DNA of 64,000 nucleotides, from positions 26,969-90,968 of IMG/VR virus record IMGVR_UViG_3300045988_095676; one strand, given 5' to 3'. Under the pieces are notes generated by a model that saw nothing but the letters and a program-made list of their open reading frames with translations, was not told the origin of the DNA and did no database searches. Both the position numbers and the translations under genes were made by a program. The DNA comes from a virus. Shown piece by piece: positions 4,440 through 48,827 of the stretch. Numbering within the stretch: the stretch's first letter is position 1; each line of letters begins with the position of its first letter.

Positions 4440-5554
4440 ATGAGAAGAAGATTTTTTAACAAAATAGGGGGGGGTATTTACCTACTGATAATTTTATAGT
4501 TTTTGATAAATCTGTATCAGATCCGGCTAATATAACAATAAGCGAAGACAGTGATTTTTTAAATAGGTTGATTACAAGTGGCTTTTATAGAGTTCTTTGC
4601 AAGAGCGCTATGGGAGGAGGAGAGGTTTTTGTATGTAGGTTGAAGGAAGACAACAGCAATTTGTATCTTGATGGTAGTCAGGCTAATCTTACCGGACCAG
4701 AAGGTGATGTGATGGTCGTTTTCTTAGAATTTTGGTATAAATGGTATAAGGTGGATGATAATAGATTTCTTTATCATTTTGCTGATCATGATATTGACGG
4801 CACTTACATCCATGTCCCGGAATCTCTTGTTGGAGCATATAAAGGATATGTATCTTTGAATGGATTATATAGCTGGAGTGGTGTTAGTCCTACAACTTCA
4901 AAATCATTCAACGATTTTGAAGGTTATGCGAAAGCGCGTGGTACCGGGTTTCAGATGATAGATTTTCAACAACATTGCGTGATTGCTATGATGTTGTATG
5001 CTAAGTACAAAACACGTAATATTCAATCTGTATTAGGATTAGGTGGCGCAAATAATAATCCGGCTACAACAACGGGAAGCAGCAACGCAACCGGCGGTGC
5101 GGATACCAAAAACGAAAGTTCAAAGTACGTTTGCGGCTTAGGTTTGGAAGGGGTTTTTGGTGGTATCTATGAATGGGTTGAAGGTGTAGAAATCAACAAC
5201 CGAGTTTGGAAAATCACCGACCCAGACGGATCGACTCGCAATGTGAACGCCGGAACTTCCAATGGCTGGATAACGAATATCGCAGCGGAAAACGGTCCGT
5301 TTTTCGATGTGGTGCCGACAAATGTTGGCGGTAACGATTCCATGCATTATTCAGATTACTATAGTCAGACATCGAGCAACTCCATTGTTTTGGCGCGCTC
5401 CTATAGCGGCTCGGATACGAGTAGTGGCGTGGCGTATGCGTATGCGTCTCGCAACGCGTTGAGCGCGAGTTCGTACTTCGGTTCGCGTCTTGCTTTCCGT
5501 GGAATCATATCCGAGGTGGCTCCAGAGCAGTTCAAAAAATTACCTGTATTATAA
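4440..5554 (+). CDS. fibre/receptor-binding-like protein with C-terminal FGE/C-type-lectin-like fold, interrupted at a G8 run (needs -1 shift)
   Basis: ATG 4440 encodes MRRRFFNKIGGG. The frame of ORF 4568..5554 is open back to 4460 through G8 at 4467-4474. GLGLEGVFGGIYEWVEG and the terminal ...GSRLAFRG resemble the GNVWEW / GFR motifs of FGE-type lectin folds. Confidence 0.5.
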
Positions 5555-26903: not shown

Positions 26904-27371
26904 ATGGGATTAACCTATAAAACAAAATTGCTTATGAAAACATTAGAACAACTTAAAGAATTAACATCAAAATGTTTAGACGGTAGAGATTTTAACAGAC
27001 TGGCTAAATTTGTTCCATATAGCATGATAAAGGATTTCGGTATGGAGCCGAATGAAGAATATGACAACGAGGAAAAGTGGAACAGTACTGTAGTTGAATT
27101 TACCAGAGAAAATGTCCTGAAACAGCTTGAAGAAGACGTAAGATTCGGTTTTGAAAAGGCATTAAATCAGAGAGGAATATCAGCCAGTTTGATGTTTGAA
27201 TGTGTGATGATGTGGAACTACATTCTGGAAGAAGGTCTTGAAGGCTGGGGTGAGGATGATTATGCATTTTATGGACTCCCTCTATTTAAAGCTACGGCTG
27301 TAAAATATGGATGGGACAATCCGATAGGGGAAGACAGCGGGAGAGAAAGAAAATATGATTCACAATATTAA
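26904..27371 (+). CDS. hypothetical protein
   Basis: ORF track. An alternative ATG at 26934 is possible. Confidence 0.6.
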   Translation: MGLTYKTKLLMKTLEQLKELTSKCLDGRDFNRLAKFVPYSMIKDFGMEPNEEYDNEEKWNSTVVEFTRENVLKQLEEDVRFGFEKALNQRGISASLMFECVMMWNYILEEGLEGWGEDDYAFYGLPLFKATAVKYGWDNPIGEDSGRERKYDSQY

Positions 27372-38658: not shown

Positions 38659-39736
38659 GATAGATATAAGAAGGATATTCAAGACCTCTAAACAAGTTAT
38701 GGAAGAGGCGTATGAGAATATCTTGAAATACAGGCGGGGAGAGCTTATCCCCGCTAAAACCGGATACGATTATATTGATGAGGCTTTGCTTGGAGGTATT
38801 TTCCCTCAGCATGCTATTGCCATAGGAGCCCGGCCATCTGTAGGTAAATCGTATGTGGCCCAAAAGATATTGGAAAATGTGATGAATCCGATGATCAACC
38901 CGCAAGCAGAAGATTATTTTCTTGTTAATTGCGAGTTCGAAATGAATCCTCAAGATCTTCTTCTTCGTAGAATGAGCCAGGATATGAAAAAGCGGGCTCC
39001 TGAAATATTAAGAAGGCAAGATTCTAATACAGTAGAAGAGATGAGGATGTTTGAAATCCTTCAAGGTGAAATCAGAAATAATATAATATACATCGATGCT
39101 CCGTGTACGGTAAAAGAGTTTGAGGCGGCTGTGTATCATATAGCTACCAAACATAAAGACAAACGTCTTATAATATTTAAAGTCGATCATATTGCTTTGA
39201 TAAAAAGAATGGGATTAGATCCTAAGTCGGCTATAGATGATTTGGTGGCGGTTATGAATGAGGCTAAATTAGTATATAAAAACATATTTTTCCTCATCAT
39301 ATCCCAATTCAACAGAGAGATAGAAGGAAGGATAAAAAGTCCACAAGAGCAGCCTCCGCGTCTTTCTGATTTTTACCAATCTGATACACTGGGTCAGTTA
39401 TGTACGTTAATGATAGGTTTGCATAATCCTCGTCGGTACGGGCTGGATAAGTATATGATATTTGGGAAAGACTGGTATCAGACTCTTGATCGGTTTAAAA
39501 CTGAAAACAAAACATCATTCAGAACAGCCGGACTGGTGTTTCATCATATACTGAAAGTAAGGCAGGTTAGCATGGAAGAGCTTACTAACACAATCCACCC
39601 AGAGATTCTGCCAGGACATGGATGGATGTACGGGGAGGGCGGGACGAAGTTCGTGAATCCCAACCAGCCGCCGACGCCGCCCAAGCTCTATACTGTGGAA
39701 GACGTTACGGATAATCAAGAACAGTCAGTATATTAA
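38627..39736 (+). CDS. DnaB-like replicative helicase (RecA-like C-terminal domain only)
   Basis: Walker A GARPSVGKS, Walker B-like IFKVDHIALI, SQFNREIE. No DnaB N-terminal domain. Confidence 0.75.
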   Translation: MTKMQEEIANRIDIRRIFKTSKQVMEEAYENILKYRRGELIPAKTGYDYIDEALLGGIFPQHAIAIGARPSVGKSYVAQKILENVMNPMINPQAEDYFLVNCEFEMNPQDLLLRRMSQDMKKRAPEILRRQDSNTVEEMRMFEILQGEIRNNIIYIDAPCTVKEFEAAVYHIATKHKDKRLIIFKVDHIALIKRMGLDPKSAIDDLVAVMNEAKLVYKNIFFLIISQFNREIEGRIKSPQEQPPRLSDFYQSDTLGQLCTLMIGLHNPRRYGLDKYMIFGKDWYQTLDRFKTENKTSFRTAGLVFHHILKVRQVSMEELTNTIHPEILPGHGWMYGEGGTKFVNPNQPPTPPKLYTVEDVTDNQEQSVY

Positions 39737-39742
39737 AAAGGT

Positions 39743-41008
39743 AATAAAATTGAAATTTCAAATAGTAAAATTGATTGATGAGATTGGTTGAAAAACATAT
39801 TATTAAAGATAACAGATTTGAAGATATTTGCCTCAAATCAGGATTGCTATATAATTATGTCTTGTATAATGCGCGTAAAGGTATCTTCAATAAAGAATAT
39901 CTGAATGAATATGAATTTTCAACCAAACTTTGTAGAGAAAATCAATTTGATTTCAGGAATTTGCCCACTTCTGTTTCTCAACAAGTAGTTGGCCAAGTTT
40001 TTAAAAATATAAAATCATGGATTAGACTCAAGAAGGATTTTGAAAACAATCCTTCCAAATACGATAATTGTTGTCCTCATCTACCTTCGTACAAGAAAGG
40101 CAAGAAACAGAACATGGTTGTGTTCACAACTTCTGCTTGTAGGCTAAAGAAGGATGGTTGTATTCATTTTGTTAAAAATATAATTCAACCAATTAAAACT
40201 GAAATAGGAGATAGTAAATTATGTCAGGTTAGAATCATTCCACAATCTACATGCTATGTGGTTGAAGTAATTTATGAAAAGAAAGAACATAATCTAAGTC
40301 TTGATAAGGATAATGTTCTTTCGATTGATTTAGGATTGAATAATTTATGTTCATGTATCAGCAATGCCGGATTGGTTCCTTTCATTGTAAACGGGCGGAT
40401 TATGAAATCTTTTAATCAGTGGTACAATAAGAGGAAAGCTAAGTTAATGTCTTATGTTGGAGGTAAGGGTACTTCTGAAAGACTTAGACAGCTAAATAAT
40501 TATAGGAATTTTTGGATAGAAGACTACATCCACAAGGTTAGTCGATATATTGTCAATTATTGTATTACTAACAACATTGGTAGTATCGTAATAGGTTTAA
40601 ATAAAGGATGGAAACAAAAGATTAATCTTGGAAAGAAGATTAATCAAAAGTTTGTTGAAATACCTTTTTCAAGACTTATAGACAAAATATCCTATAAATG
40701 TAAGTTGGTAGGTATCAGCTTTCAAATTAATGAAGAATCCTATACATCAAAGGTTGATCATTTAGCTTTTGAGAAATTAGGGAAGCATGATGTTTACTTA
40801 GGCAAAAGAAAGAAACGTGGATTATTCCAAAGCTCAGTTGGAAAGTTGTTAAATGCGGATATCAATGGAGCTATTGGGATAGGTAGAAAAGTATTCGGTG
40901 ATTCATTTGTAAACATGATAATCGATAGTGGGTTTGCGTTTAACCCGATTAGAGTAAACATTTTGTAATATAGATGTGAATTTAATGAATAAAATTTAAA
41001 ATTTTAAT
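39743..41008 (+). mobile_element. solo tnpB insertion (IS200/IS605-family remnant without tnpA)
   Basis: The tnpB gene is bracketed by imperfect AT-rich direct repeats AATAAAATTgAAAtTT (39743-39763) and AATAAAATTtAAAaTT (40988-41008). It is lower in GC than its neighbours, and there is a palindrome ttgaaatttcaa at the left edge. Confidence 0.5.
39778..40968 (+). CDS. tnpB: TnpB-like RNA-guided-nuclease family protein (OrfB), RuvC triad present, zinc finger absent
   Basis: RuvC-I SIDLGLNN, RuvC-II EESYTSK, RuvC-III NADINGAIGI. There are no CxxC pairs between II and III. Confidence 0.8.
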   Translation: MRLVEKHIIKDNRFEDICLKSGLLYNYVLYNARKGIFNKEYLNEYEFSTKLCRENQFDFRNLPTSVSQQVVGQVFKNIKSWIRLKKDFENNPSKYDNCCPHLPSYKKGKKQNMVVFTTSACRLKKDGCIHFVKNIIQPIKTEIGDSKLCQVRIIPQSTCYVVEVIYEKKEHNLSLDKDNVLSIDLGLNNLCSCISNAGLVPFIVNGRIMKSFNQWYNKRKAKLMSYVGGKGTSERLRQLNNYRNFWIEDYIHKVSRYIVNYCITNNIGSIVIGLNKGWKQKINLGKKINQKFVEIPFSRLIDKISYKCKLVGISFQINEESYTSKVDHLAFEKLGKHDVYLGKRKKRGLFQSSVGKLLNADINGAIGIGRKVFGDSFVNMIIDSGFAFNPIRVNIL

Positions 41009-41011
41009 AAC

Positions 41012-41614
41012 GTGAGACTTACAGTAGAAGAAAACGAATACCTGATAAGTAAGTTCCTTTTGGTTCTTACTGAGTTTGCAGGGGATGAAAGAGAGATGTT
41101 TTTAATCAACTCCATACATGATAAGGCGGTGGCGGATATGAATTATCGTCTTCCGTCTTTAATAAGCAGAGAACGTAAAAGACGAGTTATTGAACTCCTT
41201 AAAGAAGGAACCAGAATAATCAAGGACTTTTCCGGCTATGCAGGTGATATGGGTATGATTAACGAATACGATCGCCTAAAGAAAGAAATAGGAACCGTCC
41301 AAGATCAGCTTGGCGACGTAGAAGGTCAACTTCGGGCAGCAGGAGAAGTCATAAAAAAAGAACTTGATATGATTGCTGACCGAATCAAAGAAGATCTTCT
41401 TGACCGAGAGCTGGCTAAGAGTAATGCCGAGGCCGAAAGAAAAGCCAAAGTAGATCCGAGATATGAAGTAGCTTTAGGTGATTACAAGGAGATGCTGGAA
41501 GTGATTTTTACAACCAGAAACAAGTATTCTACGGTAGATTCTGTACATGACGATCTTCGACAGTCGGTATCTACCGGTAGAAATTCGATTATCAAAGAAG
41601 GGTACAACAGTTAA
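41012..41614 (+). CDS. coiled-coil hypothetical protein
   Basis: ORF track (GTG start). Confidence 0.6.
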   Translation: MRLTVEENEYLISKFLLVLTEFAGDEREMFLINSIHDKAVADMNYRLPSLISRERKRRVIELLKEGTRIIKDFSGYAGDMGMINEYDRLKKEIGTVQDQLGDVEGQLRAAGEVIKKELDMIADRIKEDLLDRELAKSNAEAERKAKVDPRYEVALGDYKEMLEVIFTTRNKYSTVDSVHDDLRQSVSTGRNSIIKEGYNS

Positions 41615-41841: not shown

Positions 41842-42555
41842 ATGTACATCAATTTCAGACAACTTGCAGCATCAGACATGACTCCTAATGATCTGGCTAA
41901 TCTTCTTGCTATAAGACAGAAGGATACGGTTATGATCGAAGCCATGCTGGAAAAAGATGCTGGGAGGTATATAGAGCTTGGCCTGGTTGAGAAATTAAAA
42001 TCAGGCGTGATGAGATTGACCAACAAAGGAACGTCTTTTGTGAATTATATAGAGACACCGGAGATGACAGACGAGGTTCTGGAAACGTTGAAGATTATGA
42101 TAGGAATGTACGAATCGTATTCAAAAGACATAGGTGTCAGCAGAAAAGAAGCGGAATCCAGGTTGTGTTGGTTTATGGGTAACACCTCATTCAAGAAAGA
42201 GGTCATACTTCAGGTAACGGAATCTTATATAGCAGAGTCAGGAGATTATACAATGAGCTTATGTAACTTCATATGGAAACCGCCTTCTCAGGCCTTTTCG
42301 GTCCATATGAACCTTAAAAATTCAAAGCTCTTTGACTTAATAGCTGAAAAATTTAAGATCGCTACCGAGCCTTATTTGGAGTCTAAGAAGAATAAGGAAA
42401 TGGATTGGTTGTTTGCCGTATCTAAATTGCCTACGCCGCCGGCTAAAGGCAATCCGGATTATTTGTTTACCGGAAGTTCTGAAACAGACAAAGAGCGATT
42501 GAAAAACATAAAAACGTATTTATTTAACAAAATTAGAAAGCAATGGAAAAAGTAA
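41842..42555 (+). CDS. hypothetical protein
   Basis: ORF track. Confidence 0.65.
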   Translation: MYINFRQLAASDMTPNDLANLLAIRQKDTVMIEAMLEKDAGRYIELGLVEKLKSGVMRLTNKGTSFVNYIETPEMTDEVLETLKIMIGMYESYSKDIGVSRKEAESRLCWFMGNTSFKKEVILQVTESYIAESGDYTMSLCNFIWKPPSQAFSVHMNLKNSKLFDLIAEKFKIATEPYLESKKNKEMDWLFAVSKLPTPPAKGNPDYLFTGSSETDKERLKNIKTYLFNKIRKQWKK

Positions 42556-42794
42556 GAATCAGAAAGATAATAGAGGATATAATTATTACTCAGTTTCTTA
42601 ATTCGGAAATAGATATAGTTCATGAAGAAGATGTGACGTTTAAAGAACTTGGATTAGATTCTATCGATCAAATTGAACTGGAAGTGATGGTGGAACAAAA
42701 ATTCAATATTGTTATTAATGATTATGATATGGAGACCATCAAAGATATGACTGATCTTGTTTACAAAATAATAACAGAAGGATATGGGAAGTGA
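42543..42794 (+). CDS. acyl carrier protein-like
   Basis: 83 aa, acidic. LGLDSIDQIEL matches the phosphopantetheine attachment DSL/DSI motif. Confidence 0.6.
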   Translation: MEKVRIRKIIEDIIITQFLNSEIDIVHEEDVTFKELGLDSIDQIELEVMVEQKFNIVINDYDMETIKDMTDLVYKIITEGYGK

Positions 42795-43278
42795 CATAAT
42801 TTTATGCATGGCTTTAATAGCGTCATTTGCTTTTGTTATACAGTTTTTGTTGTCGATATTAGGATCTGATCTGGATACGGATATTGATATTGATGATGCT
42901 TCTGATTTAAGTATGTCTTTGTCGGACATCATATCATTCAAGGGCATAACACATTTTATTCTTGGATATAGCTGGACTACCTACTTTTCGGGTTCCCATT
43001 TAGTAGGGGTTGTGATAGGGTCGTTTTTCTTTATCGTTTTGTTTTACGTATATAAGTTACTTCTTAAGTTAAAGCAAGAAATGGTGTACGAATGTCCGGA
43101 AGATTTAAATGGCAGAGAGGTGGAGATAGTGTTTAGATCAGGGAAGAATCATTATATGGTAAATATTTCGAAAAATGGAAGACAGGAGCAAATGAGAGTA
43201 AGATGCTTGTCTGGAAAAACTTACAAAAACGGTGACAAGGTGAATATAAAATACGAAGAAGGAGAATTAATTATCTAA
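42784..43278 (+). CDS. NfeD-like membrane protein
   Basis: N-terminal TM helices plus a C-terminal beta-rich soluble domain. It sits immediately upstream of an SPFH gene, as in bacterial nfeD-SPFH operons. Confidence 0.55.
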   Translation: MGSDIILCMALIASFAFVIQFLLSILGSDLDTDIDIDDASDLSMSLSDIISFKGITHFILGYSWTTYFSGSHLVGVVIGSFFFIVLFYVYKLLLKLKQEMVYECPEDLNGREVEIVFRSGKNHYMVNISKNGRQEQMRVRCLSGKTYKNGDKVNIKYEEGELII

Positions 43279-43309
43279 TTTTTTTATCAACAATTAAATT
43301 TTAAAAGTT

Positions 43310-45010
43310 ATGACAACAATTATGTACGTGTCAGCCATCTTAGCTGTAGTGATTATTTTGACAATCATCGGAGTCTTATCAAGGTATCGTAGATGTAAGC
43401 CTAATCAGGTCTTGGTCGTTTACGGTAAGACAGGTGGGGAAAAGAAGTCGGCAAAATTATATCATGGTGGAGCGGCATTTGTCTTGCCTATTATTCAAAG
43501 CTATGATGTTTTGTCTATGGAGCCTATGCAAATAGATTGTAGGCTTACCGGTGCTTTGTCATCTCAGAATATTAGAGTAGATGTGCCTACAACTATTACA
43601 GTAGCTATCAGTACAAATCCTGAAATCATGCAAAATGCAGCAGAAAGACTTTTGGGGATGGATACCGAATCTACTGAAAATCTTATTACAGACATCGTTT
43701 ACGGTCAGATGCGTTTGATTATTGCCGAAATGACAATCGAAAAACTTAATTCTGATAGGGATGAGTTTTTGGATAAGGCAAGAAAAAACATTGATAACGA
43801 ACTTAATAAATTGGGTCTTTATCTTTTGAACATTAACATCAGTGACATCAGAGATGAAGCCGGCTACATCATGAATCTTGGTAAAGAGGCTGAAAGCAAG
43901 GCTCTGAACGAAGCACAGGCTAATATCGAAGAACAGGAAAAGCTGGGTGCTATTAAGATTGCTGTACAACAGAAGGAAAAAGAAACGGCTGTAGCTAATA
44001 CCCAAAAAGAGCAAGAGATTCAAATTGCCTATACTGAAAAAGAAAAAGAAACGGTAGTAGCTGAAACAAAGAAAGAAAAAGAAGTAGCTTTGGCTTTAAC
44101 CGATAAAGAAAAACAGATCGGTGTAGCTCAAGCCGATAGAGATAGGGCTGCGGCTATAGCAAAGACTTTGGCTGACAAGGAATCAGCGATTGCAAGATCT
44201 AAGGCGGAACTTGAAGTAAACAAAGCTGAAGCCGAAAGAATGGAAGAAGTTGGAAAGAATAAAGCTGAAGCTGACAAACAAGCAGCTATAGCAATACAAG
44301 ACTCTGAAGCTCAGATTAAGAAAGCTGAGGCTGAGAAAAATGCTTCTGTAGGCTACAACAATGCCCAGAAAGAGGTTGCTGTATCAGAATCAGAATTGCA
44401 GGTTATCAAAGCTCAATCAGAAAAGAAAGCCGGAGAAGAGAAAGTTAAATCGGAAGCGGCTGTGAAAACGGCAAAAGAGCTTGCTGATAAAGAAGTGGAA
44501 GAAGCTAAAGCTAAGAAGGTTCAAGCTGCGCTTAAAGCTGAAAAGATTGTGCCGGCTGAAATTCAGAAGCAGGAGGCTATGTTGCAAGCTGATGCCGAGG
44601 CCGAGAAGATCAAACGCCGGGCCGATGCTGAAGCAGCAGCACATTTGGCAAAAGCAGAGGCGGAAGCAAAAGCTATTCAGATGAAGCTGGAAGCGGAAGC
44701 CGAAGGTAAGAAAAAGTCGTTGATGGCAGAAGCCGACGGATTTAAGGCTATGGTGGAAGCAGCAGAATCCAATCCTCAGATCGCCATCCAGTACAAGATG
44801 GTTAATCAGTGGAAAGAAATTGCCGGAGAACAGGTTAAGGCATTTGAGCACATTAACCTCGGAAATATCACGGTATTTGACGGCGGTCAGAACAGTACCG
44901 GTAATTTCCTTAACAATGTTGTTAAGACCGTCGCTCCGGCATTGGGAGTCATTGATCAGCTTCCGATTGCAGATACTTTAAAGAAGCTAAAAGGAGATGA
45001 CAAAAAATAA
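43310..45010 (+). CDS. flotillin/YqiK-like SPFH (band 7) domain protein
   Basis: N-terminal TM helix, SPFH-like core (VVYGKTGG...AAFVLPIIQSYDVLSMEP), then a ~250-aa Ala/Glu/Lys-rich coiled coil typical of flotillins. Confidence 0.75.
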   Translation: MTTIMYVSAILAVVIILTIIGVLSRYRRCKPNQVLVVYGKTGGEKKSAKLYHGGAAFVLPIIQSYDVLSMEPMQIDCRLTGALSSQNIRVDVPTTITVAISTNPEIMQNAAERLLGMDTESTENLITDIVYGQMRLIIAEMTIEKLNSDRDEFLDKARKNIDNELNKLGLYLLNINISDIRDEAGYIMNLGKEAESKALNEAQANIEEQEKLGAIKIAVQQKEKETAVANTQKEQEIQIAYTEKEKETVVAETKKEKEVALALTDKEKQIGVAQADRDRAAAIAKTLADKESAIARSKAELEVNKAEAERMEEVGKNKAEADKQAAIAIQDSEAQIKKAEAEKNASVGYNNAQKEVAVSESELQVIKAQSEKKAGEEKVKSEAAVKTAKELADKEVEEAKAKKVQAALKAEKIVPAEIQKQEAMLQADAEAEKIKRRADAEAAAHLAKAEAEAKAIQMKLEAEAEGKKKSLMAEADGFKAMVEAAESNPQIAIQYKMVNQWKEIAGEQVKAFEHINLGNITVFDGGQNSTGNFLNNVVKTVAPALGVIDQLPIADTLKKLKGDDKK

Positions 45011-45117
45011 ATACAATGGCCCAGGGTTACACTTGGGCCTAATTGAAGAAATAAAAGCAGCATTCATAGATTTCCTGCCGGCAGGAACAGTGCTTTACTA
45101 ATTACGATATTTTTAAC

Positions 45118-45225
45118 ATGGATTTTGGACAAGATTTAGAACCAGAAGAACTGACCAAGCATTATGATCAGTATTATGGAATTGATTTTGAAACAGAAGA
45201 AGAGGAGGATGAAGAGTATGACTGA
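45118..45225 (+). CDS. 35-aa acidic peptide
   Basis: Hand-translated MDFGQDLEPEELTKHYDQYYGIDFETEEEEDEEYD. Confidence 0.35.
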   Translation: MDFGQDLEPEELTKHYDQYYGIDFETEEEEDEEYD

Positions 45226-45523: not shown

Positions 45524-46539
45524 TGGTCCCGGAAACGCATTTGCTATATAAGGAGTTTAATGGTGTGAAACGTCTTGCCATATCTTATTCCCAGATAGAT
45601 ACGTTTCTTACTTGTCCAATGAAATGGTATAAAACTTACGTGGAGGGCAAAAGGTCTACGGAAAAACAAGAAGCTACGTCTTATGGTACGGTTATTCATA
45701 AGACACTGGAATACTTCTTCAAGAACGGAAGACAGCCTTCTGGCAAAGACCTGGGGGAAGCTATAAGTTACTATGCTTACCAAGAAGACATACCTTGGCA
45801 ATCACCGGAAAATATGATGATAGCCATGAAGCAATCTGGAGAGCTTCTTGCTTGGATTGTGGATCTGTTCAAAAAAGACGGCAATAGGTTTATGATAGCT
45901 GATAGTGATCTTAATCCCTGCGAGAAACTTATCAGACACGGCGCTATAGTTGGAGTCGAAGAAGATTTTGTGCTGCCGTACCGTCTTCCTAAGCCTGTTA
46001 ACATAAATGGAGTAATTCATACTCATGTGTACATAGTAGGATCGGTAGACCTTCATCTGGCTATAAAAAGCAAGAACGTAGTTCACCATTATGTCATAGA
46101 TTGGAAATCAGGTAATAAGGTTTTTGATTCTAAGAAGTTGGAAACGAATTTACAGCATCCTATATATTCGTTTTACATCTATAGAAAATATGGTGGAGTT
46201 CTGCCAGATATGAACATCTATTTCTTTACCAGGACCAGACAATACCAAAAGGTTAAGGTGGATGAGGAACGTAAAACAAAATCTATAGAGATGCTAAATG
46301 ACACTTTGTCTAAAATGTATGATTTTGAAGATAATAGTGTAAAAACATTTCAGGCATACATCCAGGGAGCAGAAGGAGCCAGGTATAGCAAGCGGCGTGC
46401 CACCCTAAGCCAGCCTGTTCCGCAAAACAAGCTACCCTGCCCGTCAGCACTGTGTTACTATTGTGACTTTGGATTACATAACAAAAACGAATGCCCTTTC
46501 TCTTCGGATTGGGATCCGTCTAAAAAGATAAAACGATGA
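45520..46539 (+). CDS. Cas4/RecB-like PD-(D/E)XK nuclease with Fe-S cysteines
   Basis: N-terminal Cys (FLTCPMKWY), core GSVDLHL...VIDWKSG, and a C-terminal CPSALCYYC...C cluster. Confidence 0.7.
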   Translation: MMVPETHLLYKEFNGVKRLAISYSQIDTFLTCPMKWYKTYVEGKRSTEKQEATSYGTVIHKTLEYFFKNGRQPSGKDLGEAISYYAYQEDIPWQSPENMMIAMKQSGELLAWIVDLFKKDGNRFMIADSDLNPCEKLIRHGAIVGVEEDFVLPYRLPKPVNINGVIHTHVYIVGSVDLHLAIKSKNVVHHYVIDWKSGNKVFDSKKLETNLQHPIYSFYIYRKYGGVLPDMNIYFFTRTRQYQKVKVDEERKTKSIEMLNDTLSKMYDFEDNSVKTFQAYIQGAEGARYSKRRATLSQPVPQNKLPCPSALCYYCDFGLHNKNECPFSSDWDPSKKIKR

Positions 46540-46709
46540 AATACGAGGACGTTCAAAAGTTAAGAACAAAATACCGGCAAGATCCGGAAGTTATAAACGT
46601 AGAATACATGAGAGACGTTGCTGTAAGATGTGGGAATTTCAAGAAAGCATTTGAACTTCAGGAGAAGCTGGAGGATATATGGTTTAACTACTTAAAGGGA
46701 GTCCAATGA
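46536..46709 (+). CDS. hypothetical protein (57 aa)
   Basis: Hand-translated ORF with ATGA overlaps at both ends. Confidence 0.45.
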   Translation: MKYEDVQKLRTKYRQDPEVINVEYMRDVAVRCGNFKKAFELQEKLEDIWFNYLKGVQ

Positions 46710-47035
46710 AAGAAGATCTAATATGTGGAGTAGCGATCCTTTTGTATTTAGTTTTATTATACTTGCTCACGACAGCTTTCATAAAAACAGGTAGAGCAGT
46801 AGATCGTTATAAGATGAAGAAGAAAACTGACAAAATCAAAGTAGGTCAAAGATACGAACATAAGAACTACTTTGAGGATCCATTTGAAAGAGGCAAGCAT
46901 GTGATTAAGATATTAGACATAAAAGAAGGGTACGTTCTATATGAGTACGAAGAAAAACCATATATACGTTCTTCTGTGAGTCTTGAAGATATTGTTAAAA
47001 AATACATTTTAATTACTGATGTTAAACACAAGTAA
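46706..47035 (+). CDS. membrane-anchored hypothetical protein
   Basis: ORF track, N-terminal hydrophobic helix. Confidence 0.6.
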   Translation: MKEDLICGVAILLYLVLLYLLTTAFIKTGRAVDRYKMKKKTDKIKVGQRYEHKNYFEDPFERGKHVIKILDIKEGYVLYEYEEKPYIRSSVSLEDIVKKYILITDVKHK

Positions 47036-47038
47036 GTC

Positions 47039-47416
47039 ATGAAAAAAGAAGTCACAATCAAGGAAGATATGGCTGTGTTTTATAAAAATACAGGAAAAGA
47101 ACTATGGATTTATAACGGACTTTTCAGAAACAAGGTGTTGTCTATAAAAAAAGATAAAGCCATTATCATGTGTGAAACTGATGCTGAATATGCTGTACTG
47201 ATAGAAGATAATCAGTTTATTGCCGTAGCAAAAAACATGGATTATGATTACTGCTGCGCATTCACATTAGGTAATGCCGAGGCTTATGGGGATCGTATGG
47301 GCATATCGTGCAGTGTATGCTTGCTTGAAGATAACGAAGATAAAGCAAGGGAGATGTTGAAAGAGGCGATAATAGAACTTTCAAAAAACAGTAAAATAGA
47401 TTGCGATGGGCTTTGA
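47039..47416 (+). CDS. hypothetical protein
   Basis: ORF track. Confidence 0.6.
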   Translation: MKKEVTIKEDMAVFYKNTGKELWIYNGLFRNKVLSIKKDKAIIMCETDAEYAVLIEDNQFIAVAKNMDYDYCCAFTLGNAEAYGDRMGISCSVCLLEDNEDKAREMLKEAIIELSKNSKIDCDGL

Positions 47417-48827
47417 ACTTAGACCTTACCAAAAAGAGGCAGTAGATGCCGGGCTTAAGTTCCTTACAGGAAGATCTAAGAAGCCTGGCATAGAAGTCTT
47501 GCCGTGTGCAGCGGGGAAGTCTTTGATAATTAGCAAGATAGCTCATGAATTAAAAAGACCTATCCTTGTATTACAGCCATCTAAAGAGATTCTGGAGCAG
47601 AATTATGCGAAGGCTGTATCATTCGGTTCTAAACCTACCATATATTCTGCTTCATGTAAAAAAAAAGAGTTATCGGCTATGACTTATGCTACACTTAAAA
47701 GCATAAAGAAAGACGTAGCAAGGTTGAAAGATATAGGGATAGACACATTATTGATAGATGAGGTGCATAGCGGGTATTCTCCTGAAGAAGGTTCTGAATT
47801 TATGGAGTTTATGAACAGGTTCCCAGAGGCGAAGGTGCTGGGCTTCACCGCCACGCCCTGCCGCCTCCGGACCTACAGCTCCATGCTGGAAGGAAACTAC
47901 AGCAAACTTAATATGCTGACGAAAGACGAGCATAATTTCTTTAAGAAGATAGTTCATGTGACTCAAATACAAGAGCTAACTTCTCAGGGATTTTGGTGCC
48001 CTCTTAAGTACGAACGATGGTCGTTTGATGAATCGGCTCTGATATTAAACAGTACCGGAGCCGAATATACCAACGAATCTATTAAAGAAAGCATCGTACG
48101 AAACGGCTTAAACAACTCTATCTACAAGCGCCTTCTTCAACTTATGAACGAGCGTAAAGCTATTTTGGTTTGCATGGATTCTATCGAATCATGTAATAGA
48201 ATATCAGAGTTCATGAATGCCAGGATGGGAGCCATAACCGGTGTCGTAACATCGCTAACAACCAAAAAGAAAAGAGAGCAAATCATATCCGATTTCAAAG
48301 AAGGTAAGTTGAAGGTGGTTTTTAATTATTCAACGCTTGCTACCGGATTTGATTTTCCCGAACTTGATTGTGTGATGTTTGGACGACCAACATTCTCATA
48401 TTCAACATATTACCAGGTGCTCGGCAGGTGCGTCCGCATCCATCCTGACAAGAAAGAGGCGCTGATAGTTGACTGCTGCGACAACATGAGGCGCTTTGGT
48501 CGGATAGAAGACCTGACAATCGAGCAATTCCCTTCTAAGGGCTGGTGTATGTTTGCCGGCGATCAACTTCTGTCTAATATAAGGATGGGTGATATTATTA
48601 CCAAAGACGAGATCCTTCGTCGGGCAGCCTCGATTAAATCTGTGAATGGAGATGGTAGGAGAGAAGACGATCTTGACAGTATAATAATGTGGTTTGGAAA
48701 ATATGAAGGAATTAGATTCAAGGACATACCGGTGTCGTATTTTAGGTTCTTGGCTGAGAATATGGCGGTAAAACCGGGAGATAGGAAAGAAAAGATTATC
48801 GAATATTATAATAGGATAAAAGCATGA
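47406..48827 (+). CDS. SF2 DEAD/DEAH-type helicase with C-terminal DUF3820-like tail
   Basis: RPYQKEAV, Walker A AAGKS, DEVH box, motif III GFTATP, motif VI QVLGRCVR. C-terminal WFGKYEGIRFKDIP..YFRFL. Confidence 0.8.
   Translation: MGFELRPYQKEAVDAGLKFLTGRSKKPGIEVLPCAAGKSLIISKIAHELKRPILVLQPSKEILEQNYAKAVSFGSKPTIYSASCKKKELSAMTYATLKSIKKDVARLKDIGIDTLLIDEVHSGYSPEEGSEFMEFMNRFPEAKVLGFTATPCRLRTYSSMLEGNYSKLNMLTKDEHNFFKKIVHVTQIQELTSQGFWCPLKYERWSFDESALILNSTGAEYTNESIKESIVRNGLNNSIYKRLLQLMNERKAILVCMDSIESCNRISEFMNARMGAITGVVTSLTTKKKREQIISDFKEGKLKVVFNYSTLATGFDFPELDCVMFGRPTFSYSTYYQVLGRCVRIHPDKKEALIVDCCDNMRRFGRIEDLTIEQFPSKGWCMFAGDQLLSNIRMGDIITKDEILRRAASIKSVNGDGRREDDLDSIIMWFGKYEGIRFKDIPVSYFRFLAENMAVKPGDRKEKIIEYYNRIKA

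Follow-up and report, generated by a model that had tools for sequence, protein, structure and literature searches.

Gene pairs encoding an SPFH protein and an NfeD-like membrane protein are widespread in bacteria, and their function is still poorly understood. Why a phage should carry such a pair, and whether a gene for an acyl carrier protein (ACP) standing directly before it takes part in the same function, are the questions raised by positions 42543–45010 of a 64,000-nucleotide stretch of viral DNA, here called the window (IMG/VR record IMGVR_UViG_3300045988_095676, positions 26,969 to 90,968). A first-pass annotation, made from the letters alone, had described these positions as an ACP–NfeD–flotillin module of three genes and had proposed that the phage uses it to remodel host membrane microdomains, as a scaffold for replication or assembly or as a means of superinfection exclusion or defence interference. 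In the present analysis, the module proves to be an SPFH–NfeD operon of bacterial type in a phage genome, immediately preceded by an ACP gene that is specific to the phage. An accessory, host-derived function in membrane homeostasis or scaffolding is tentatively favoured for it, with a rough probability of 0.45.

The window is approximately 95% identical to GenBank record OR575929.1 (phage csAssE-Sib), a complete 151-kb Caudoviricetes genome from the human gut in which the three genes are already labelled 'acyl carrier protein', 'transmembrane protein' and 'flotillin family protein'. The major capsid protein of the phage shows about 34% identity to its counterparts in the 145-kb Cellulophaga phages phi4:1 and phi17:2, a likeness that fits a host among the Bacteroidota. 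It is a phage of Bacteroidales, very abundant and very common in the human gut, and the main protein clusters comprise more than 2,400 sequences each. Literature searches that covered csAssE-Sib, flotillin, NfeD or SPFH proteins in phages, and crAss-like phages carrying flotillin turned up no work on a module of this kind, although GenBank partly annotates it and the kind of system, an SPFH–NfeD operon, is known. One paper from 2026 describes as 'unclear' why a phage should have an SPFH gene.

Identity of the three genes

The three open reading frames (ORFs) of the first-pass annotation were confirmed on the plus strand, and the features recognized in them are as follows.

42543–42794, plus strand: stand-alone ACP-like gene, 83 aa, net charge −11; Pfam PP-binding
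42660–42662, plus strand: TCT codon of Ser40, predicted phosphopantetheine attachment site (GLDS40I), read from the sequence
42784–43278, plus strand: NfeD-like protein, 164 aa, with three transmembrane (TM) helices, an acidic DxDxDxD loop and a C-terminal OB-type beta-barrel
43096–43275, plus strand: OB-type beta-barrel forming the C-terminal domain of the NfeD-like protein (aa ~105–164)
43310–45010, plus strand: flotillin-family SPFH protein, 566 aa; Pfam Band_7 and Flot
43322–43384, plus strand: predicted N-terminal hydrophobic membrane anchor of the flotillin (aa ~5–25, within a hydrophobic stretch at aa 1–28), followed by RYRRCK; hydropathy scan
43397–43942, plus strand: SPFH/Band 7 domain (aa 30–211, Pfam envelope), 78% identical to that of the nearest bacterial flotillin
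43907–44719, plus strand: Ala/Glu/Lys coiled coil (aa ~200–470) with hendecad (11-residue) periodicity
44657–44986, plus strand: C-terminal Flot domain (aa 450–559; PF15975), 75–77% identical to those of the nearest bacterial flotillins

The NfeD ORF overlaps the ACP ORF by 11 nt, gene overlap being the norm in this compact phage genome, and the flotillin ORF starts 31 nt past the NfeD end. Consistent with the early or middle placement first suggested for them, the three genes lie inside a long co-directional block that also encodes a DnaB-like helicase, a primase, a PD-(D/E)XK exonuclease, further helicases and enzymes of deoxynucleoside triphosphate metabolism.

Profile searches uphold the flotillin assignment, since the protein passes the Pfam cutoffs both for Band_7 (PF01145; 3e-25, 89.7 bits against a cutoff of 23.6) and for Flot (PF15975; 1.3e-9, 38.6 bits against 27). 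Its best family match is the NCBIfam model FloT (NF058507; 7e-43). At 147 bits, the protein stays far below the 700 that this model demands of an equivalog, and by these scores it is FloT-like and not a FloT orthologue. The best matches in the PDB are human flotillin-2 and flotillin-1, with QmcA as a weak sequence match, and the anchor motif is common to the Bacteroidales homologues. Autocorrelation of the coiled coil peaks at lags of 11, 22, 33, 44 and 55 residues. In-frame deletions of 2–159 aa found in relatives are confined to aa ~200–470 and many are multiples of 11, which indicates that the hendecad register is preserved; the SPFH domain is almost never touched by in-frame length variants.

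The NfeD assignment stood by fold, family profile and gene position, but not by the direct search that had been proposed for it: the 164-aa window protein has no match in Pfam (E ≤ 0.1), PF01957 included, nor in PHROGs, NCBIfam or PADLOC. An exhaustive profile search recovered 433 cluster representatives (50% identity, E ≤ 0.001), mostly of 160–180 aa, and a family alignment and profile were made from 83 full-length members. NfeD (PF01957) is the only Pfam family matched by more than one of these members (3 of 83, best E value 6e-5), and the Pfam YqiJ model matches none of them. Searched against the PDB, the 83-member profile finds Bacillus subtilis YuaF as its best hit, a marginal match (E 0.031) that spans the whole C-terminal domain. 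An AlphaFold2 (AF2) model with a mean confidence (pLDDT) of 89 contains three N-terminal TM helices (residues 2–25, 52–69 and 72–96), in agreement with hydropathy, followed by a C-terminal OB-type beta-barrel of the NfeD kind, and it resembles YbbJ of the QmcA–YbbJ complex. In BFVD, a protein of another uncultured virus that bears the name 'NfeD-like C-terminal domain-containing protein' matches over its full length at 35% identity. Hallmarks of the subfamily are an SFKG..HF..G motif and the acidic DxDxDxD loop, which is conserved, and its gene stands upstream of an SPFH gene in the window, at two further loci (L005 and L007, see below) and at seven bacterial loci. The label 'NfeD-like' is therefore well supported at the level of fold and profile together with gene position. 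Judged by these searches, the subfamily lies out of reach of the Pfam NfeD model, to which its 433 clusters are invisible, and its description should be useful for genome annotation. Scans of IMG/VR with two divergent members (P0045 and P0019) found nothing, and one database 'homologue' (P0030) is a chimera with a tail that resembles a translated human Alu element, a sign of misassembly in a public metagenome.

The ACP-like identity likewise held, with 32.7 bits against a cutoff of 20.8 for PP-binding (PF00550), a match to phrog_5934 'acyl carrier protein' (3e-9), a DS(L/I)-type serine in the form GLDS40I, and best PDB sequence matches that are all ACPs of type II fatty acid synthesis. Scores against the NCBIfam AcpP models reach only ~20–33 bits where the cutoffs are 65–106. 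Because these scores fall so far under the cutoffs, the protein is classed on sequence as a divergent stand-alone type II carrier protein, and not as an orthologue of the housekeeping AcpP. None of the PADLOC models (E ≤ 0.01) matches the ACP, the NfeD-like protein or the flotillin.

Origin and distribution of the pair

NfeD-like genes (165–170 aa) paired with flotillin genes (523–659 aa) occur at seven loci in chromosomal contexts of Bacteroidales (L089–L093, L099 and L100). A Tannerella pair adjoins rplM/rpsI/rpsB/tsf, two metagenomic contigs carry the pair with pgi, gpsA, a tRNA synthetase gene and the chorismate synthase gene aroC, and other pairs lie on a 185-kb Prevotellaceae contig and in Dysgonomonadaceae metagenome-assembled genomes. 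These chromosomal pairs agree with the phage pair in gene order, sizes and motifs and are its evident source, whereas they differ from it in having housekeeping neighbours, other coiled-coil lengths (as the range of 523–659 aa reflects) and no ACP gene upstream. The nearest bacterial flotillin is 62% identical to the phage protein overall, and the bacterial NfeD partners are 37–39% identical to theirs.

On the phage side, the order ACP–NfeD–flotillin is kept in a sister lineage represented by a 74-kb contig (L005), with identities to the window of 83% for flotillin, 61% for NfeD and 35% for the ACP. A more distant locus (L007) has NfeD and SPFH genes and no ACP. Among the related phages, to which the first-pass annotation had pointed, the sister lineage retains the whole module, and within the species of the window itself the flotillin is often lost (see below). 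The distribution indicates that an ancestor of this gut phage lineage captured NfeD and flotillin together from a Bacteroidales chromosome. The capture is old, because identity to the nearest bacterial copies is only 62% for flotillin and 39% for NfeD. The ACP is a phage-side neighbour of the captured pair.

The module had also been called unusual for a phage, and this is borne out: among 50,697 deposited phage records, about three are credible carriers of a flotillin, namely csAssE-Sib, Vibrio phage KIT04 and one uncultured gut phage (MT835492), and PHROGs contains no family matching the flotillin or the NfeD-like protein. Two other records were rejected as phage carriers. OR846627.1 ('Enterococcus phage Efs 1-1-1', L097) is evidently bacterial chromosomal DNA, an Enterococcus-type locus in which an ABC transporter and a TetR regulator accompany a yuaF-floT-like pair, and MT835570.1 (L096) is evidently a bacterial, high-GC contig with pfkA/pgi.

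Repeated loss under strong constraint

Variation was examined in 80 IMG/VR genomes of the same species, chosen for an intact NfeD gene and biased to that extent. The flotillin is full-length in 54 of them, carries an in-frame 9-aa deletion in one, is absent from 12, is broken in 12 and could not be scored in one, so that 24 of the 79 scorable genomes, some of them on contigs longer than 140 kb, lack an intact copy. The flanking genes are intact throughout (79 of 79 scorable genomes for the upstream gene, which encodes 237 aa, and 77 of 77 for the downstream exonuclease). The 12 broken copies result from unique large deletions, frameshifts or nonsense mutations, whereas the 12 absences share a common junction, which puts the NfeD stop codon directly before the next small gene.

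43282–45110: whole-gene flotillin deletion, ~1.83 kb, in 12 of the 80 genomes; defined by gaps between high-scoring segment pairs and by junction sequences; A/T-rich microhomology

The flotillin-less genomes do not form one clade, as five of them cluster and the others have flotillin-positive nearest neighbours. A search for NfeD homologues in Logan/ENA assemblies added one intact cluster of 2,357 sequences and about 24 singletons in which the NfeD N-terminus is fused, in or out of frame, to the flotillin 3' end, with distinct breakpoints (left 42864–43212, right 44599–44906), as well as an ACP–NfeD fusion and small internal deletions. One deletion allele was checked at the DNA level and lies on an 82.5-kb contig collinear with the window save for a clean 1,555-bp deletion. 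An assembly artefact was considered and rejected: no k-mer above 8 nt is common to the breakpoint regions, which speaks against de Bruijn mis-joins as the source of the deletion alleles, and the module contains no repeated 20-mer. Compensation of genome size for an inserted TnpB element was also rejected as a cause of loss, because the element occurs in 3 of the 80 genomes and in none of those without flotillin.

Where the genes are present, they are strongly constrained. The ratio of nonsynonymous to synonymous diversity (piN/piS) of intact alleles is 0.043 for flotillin and 0.070 for NfeD, similar to the values for the upstream 237-aa gene (0.049) and the exonuclease (0.056), at a synonymous diversity of 0.14–0.21 for the two module genes. 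The flotillin-less genomes retain intact NfeD and ACP genes, with a piN/piS of 0.086 for NfeD, a pattern compatible with use of the host flotillin by the NfeD-like protein. The pair therefore provides an accessory fitness function and not a core one, strongly constrained where present and repeatedly lost elsewhere.

These observations bear directly on two interpretations that would deprive the pair of this accessory role. A membrane platform needed for phage DNA replication or virion assembly, a form of the scaffold that the first-pass annotation had put first, would accord with the position of the module among same-strand genes for a DnaB-like helicase, a primase, an exonuclease and helicases. 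An essential role of this kind is scarcely credible, however, in view of the 24 genomes without intact flotillin but with intact flanks, the dozens of further deletion alleles in long contigs, and the related Cellulophaga phages, which gave no flotillin match; the natural deletion variants largely refute it. The opposite view, that the genes are neutral, recently captured host DNA on its way to being lost, draws on the frequency with which flotillin and ACP have suffered deletions, frameshifts or nonsense mutations and on the high ACP piN/piS given below. It is contradicted for NfeD and flotillin by constraint equal to that of core genes despite appreciable synonymous diversity, by retention of the module in the sister lineage, by the age of the capture and by coiled-coil variants that keep the hendecad register in frame, and is thus very improbable. 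The first-pass annotation had itself named a recent, non-functional capture with frameshifts in relatives as the outcome that would undo its reading; a substantial minority of the related genomes does carry frameshifts, nonsense mutations or deletions, whereas purifying selection, retention in the sister lineage and the 62% and 39% identities to bacterial copies show a capture that is neither recent nor non-functional.

The ACP follows a different regime

In the same IMG/VR sample, the piN/piS of the ACP is 0.44, which corresponds to evolution about eight times faster than that of NfeD, flotillin and the flanking genes. In protein databases, clustering at 90% identity divides the ACP into 942 clusters and NfeD, which is twice as long, into 49. 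The substitutions gather just after Ser40, in a region presumed, by homology to AcpP, to be helix II, the partner-recognition helix. Of 74 IMG/VR alleles, 73 retain Ser40 itself, the single change being S40Y, and so does the sister-lineage ACP. Among 110 ACP cluster representatives, however, it is one of the three most variable positions, with F, P, Y or A in its place in 26, on many haplotype backgrounds; Ser40-substituted alleles occur in at least 93 contigs, with the remaining ORF intact. Replacement of Ser40 is a recurrent minority state and not the norm, because only one of the 74 IMG/VR alleles is altered. Separately from the S40Y allele, the ACP gene is disrupted in 6 of the 79 scorable genomes.

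The coupling of the ACP to the NfeD–flotillin pair, which the first-pass annotation had taken as part of the module's singularity, was not borne out at the functional level. It is unproven because none of the seven bacterial NfeD–flotillin loci examined has an ACP upstream, because the ACP evolves under a different regime, and because gene overlap is common in this genome; the link consists of adjacency in two sister lineages only. The annotation of csAssE-Sib includes no phosphopantetheinyl transferase, acyltransferase or lipid enzyme. The upstream 237-aa protein was considered as a partner enzyme, and searches of Pfam, PHROGs and the PDB assigned it to no family, its low-confidence model being uninformative. 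Compared with the phage ACPs of PHROG 5934, the window protein is alike in being a small acidic PP-binding protein with the DS(L/I) motif, and differs in lacking annotated phage partner enzymes, in its unusually fast evolution and in the recurrent substitution of its attachment serine. Fast evolution together with recurrent loss of Ser40 suggests, as a speculation, that the ACP acts by binding host ACP-dependent enzymes, as a binder or decoy, rather than as an acyl carrier in the service of the flotillin system.

Relation to known SPFH–NfeD systems

One of the closest known counterparts is yuaF-floT of B. subtilis (yuaG; NfeD2–FloT). There, the gene for a short NfeD with TM helices and a C-terminal OB domain immediately precedes that of a flotillin built, like the phage protein, from an N-terminal anchor, SPFH domain, EA-rich coiled coil and Flot domain at the C-terminus. 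The phage system differs in being phage-encoded, of Bacteroidales type and preceded by an ACP gene, and in its proteins, since its NfeD has the acidic DxDxDxD loop and is too divergent for PF01957, and its flotillin reaches 147 of the 700 bits required of a FloT. QmcA–YbbJ and YqiK–YqiJ (PDB 8z5g) of Escherichia coli also combine an SPFH protein with a short membrane NfeD, but QmcA is stomatin-like and not flotillin-like. In the stomatin/NfeD pair PH1511/PH1510 of Pyrococcus horikoshii, PH1510 is a long protein with a serine-protease domain, which the AF2 model of the phage protein lacks.

Among phages, Vibrio phage KIT04 and gut phage MT835492 share with the window the possession of a flotillin-family gene, but their flotillins are only 26–31% identical to the window protein and are accompanied neither by a recognizable NfeD OB-domain gene nor by an ACP. 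Directly upstream of the flotillin gene of KIT04 (L002), positions 4680–4928 encode an 82-aa protein with several TM segments and an acidic 'DLDD' stretch. It could be a truncated NfeD-like membrane part without the OB domain, and the NfeD-family profile does not detect it.

Possible functions of the module

According to the favoured explanation of an accessory, host-derived membrane function, the pair is probably expressed together with the replication-gene block. By analogy with characterized homologues, the N-terminal helix of the flotillin would anchor it in the host inner membrane, and the hendecad coiled coil and the C-terminal Flot domain would build an oligomeric cage or dome that fences off a patch of membrane, with the NfeD-like protein inside the patch and its cytoplasmic OB domain bound to the SPFH protein. 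The phage would in this way supply or reshape flotillin microdomains during infection. Its flotillin may also co-assemble with that of the host, to which it is closely related (78% identity in the SPFH domain), a possibility that the retention of NfeD in genomes without phage flotillin would fit. The benefit would be that membrane-bound processes keep working and the membrane stays intact until programmed lysis.

Several considerations weigh against this explanation. Cage assembly, NfeD–flotillin binding and co-assembly with the host protein are all inferred from homologues (9bq2, 8z5g), and the integrity of NfeD in the IMG/VR sample is not independent evidence, given that the genomes were selected for it. 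Loss of flotillin in ~30% of genomes could also mean that the protein is costly or sensed by some hosts, which would suit a role in conflict as much as one of the housekeeping type. A partner of the ACP could hide among the mostly unannotated proteins of the phage. Finally, the operon structure is putative: in scans for sigma-70 promoters and terminators, which are unsuited to Bacteroidota promoters, the counts do not exceed those in shuffled sequence.

The most probable of the rival explanations is a module for conflict, which would serve superinfection exclusion, act against membrane-targeting abortive-infection effectors, or contain a protein that the host senses, the polymorphism then reflecting an arms race. 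The membrane-associated location of the products and the position of the genes in the early replication block would suit such a role, as would the many independent loss-of-function events, the spread of the flotillin-absence allele over the population instead of one clade, and the fast ACP, whose mutational hot spot at the active-site serine resembles escape or target-tracking evolution. Known exclusion proteins, on the other hand, are typically phage-specific, whereas the pair is a little-changed host housekeeping operon; none of the three proteins matches a PADLOC model; and flotillin and NfeD are without sign of diversifying selection (piN/piS 0.04–0.07). Superinfection exclusion or defence interference, both named by the first-pass annotation, is thus possible, and a conflict role as the main function is doubtful. 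An interpretation that merges this idea with the membrane function would have NfeD and flotillin take over host flotillin microdomains by co-assembly and turn them into a phage-specific compartment, while apo-ACP inhibits or decoys host enzymes and host factors maintain the presence or absence of flotillin, the coiled-coil length variants and the Ser40 substitutions, making the module as a whole an interface of conflict. It is unlikely as a complete account; if it were true, the coiled-coil length variants would alter cage size.

Control of proteolysis is a further candidate. In the known case of HflK/C, a cage surrounds FtsH, the protease that controls lambda CII and LpxC; a flotillin–NfeD cage could by the same logic enclose or modulate a host FtsH-type protease, stabilizing phage proteins or shifting the balance between lipopolysaccharide and phospholipid, with the ACP acting at the same node of lipid synthesis. 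Membership of the SPFH/flotillin family, the resemblance of the NfeD model to YbbJ of QmcA–YbbJ and a neighbouring ACP that could touch acyl-ACP-dependent enzymes all lend themselves to this scenario, which is otherwise entirely inferential and quite improbable, as the protein is of flotillin type and not of HflK/C or stomatin type, the short NfeD has no protease domain and no FtsH-related gene was found nearby.

Whichever function applies, the phage-borne pair offers a natural gain and loss system, in an abundant gut phage, for the poorly understood function of SPFH–NfeD proteins. Its naturally occurring flotillin-positive, flotillin-deleted, coiled-coil-length and ACP-Ser40 variants make that function testable by comparison.

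Neighbouring genes and other elements

The gene directly upstream of the module is the conserved flank mentioned above.

41842–42555: upstream gene, 237 aa, overlapping the ACP start; intact in 79 of 79 scorable genomes, piN/piS 0.049

Its product has no Pfam, PHROG or PDB sequence match, and a single-sequence model reaches a pLDDT of 36. The weak matches obtained are to a winged helix-turn-helix-like structure (2x4h, E 0.21) and to PADLOC LmuC (E 0.002).

Farther upstream, a TnpB element of 1.29 kb occupies positions 39724–41012 of the window, with an ORF at 39775–40968 that contains IS605 OrfB and Cas12f-like TNB domains. It has inserted into the spacer, about 15 nt long, that separates the DnaB-like helicase gene from the gene after it. 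Neither csAssE-Sib nor contig L004 has this element, and only 3 of the 80 related IMG/VR genomes do; csAssE-Sib carries two different TnpB genes at other places. OR575929.1 (L094) also contains, at 45751–47816, a diversity-generating retroelement (variable repeat, template repeat, initiation of mutagenic homing site and reverse transcriptase) whose target is a putative tail-fibre gene, as well as several tRNAs and structural proteins of Bacteroides-type glycoside hydrolase and BACON-like carbohydrate-binding kinds.

The spacer 3' of the flotillin gene (45010–45180) is variable among relatives. Near position 45089, most relatives have 10 additional bases; the window lacks them, and the small ORF that csAssE-Sib has there as WOZ57344.1 is thereby broken. 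At position 45176, an additional segment of about 355–362 bp is present in approximately 14 of the 80 relatives.

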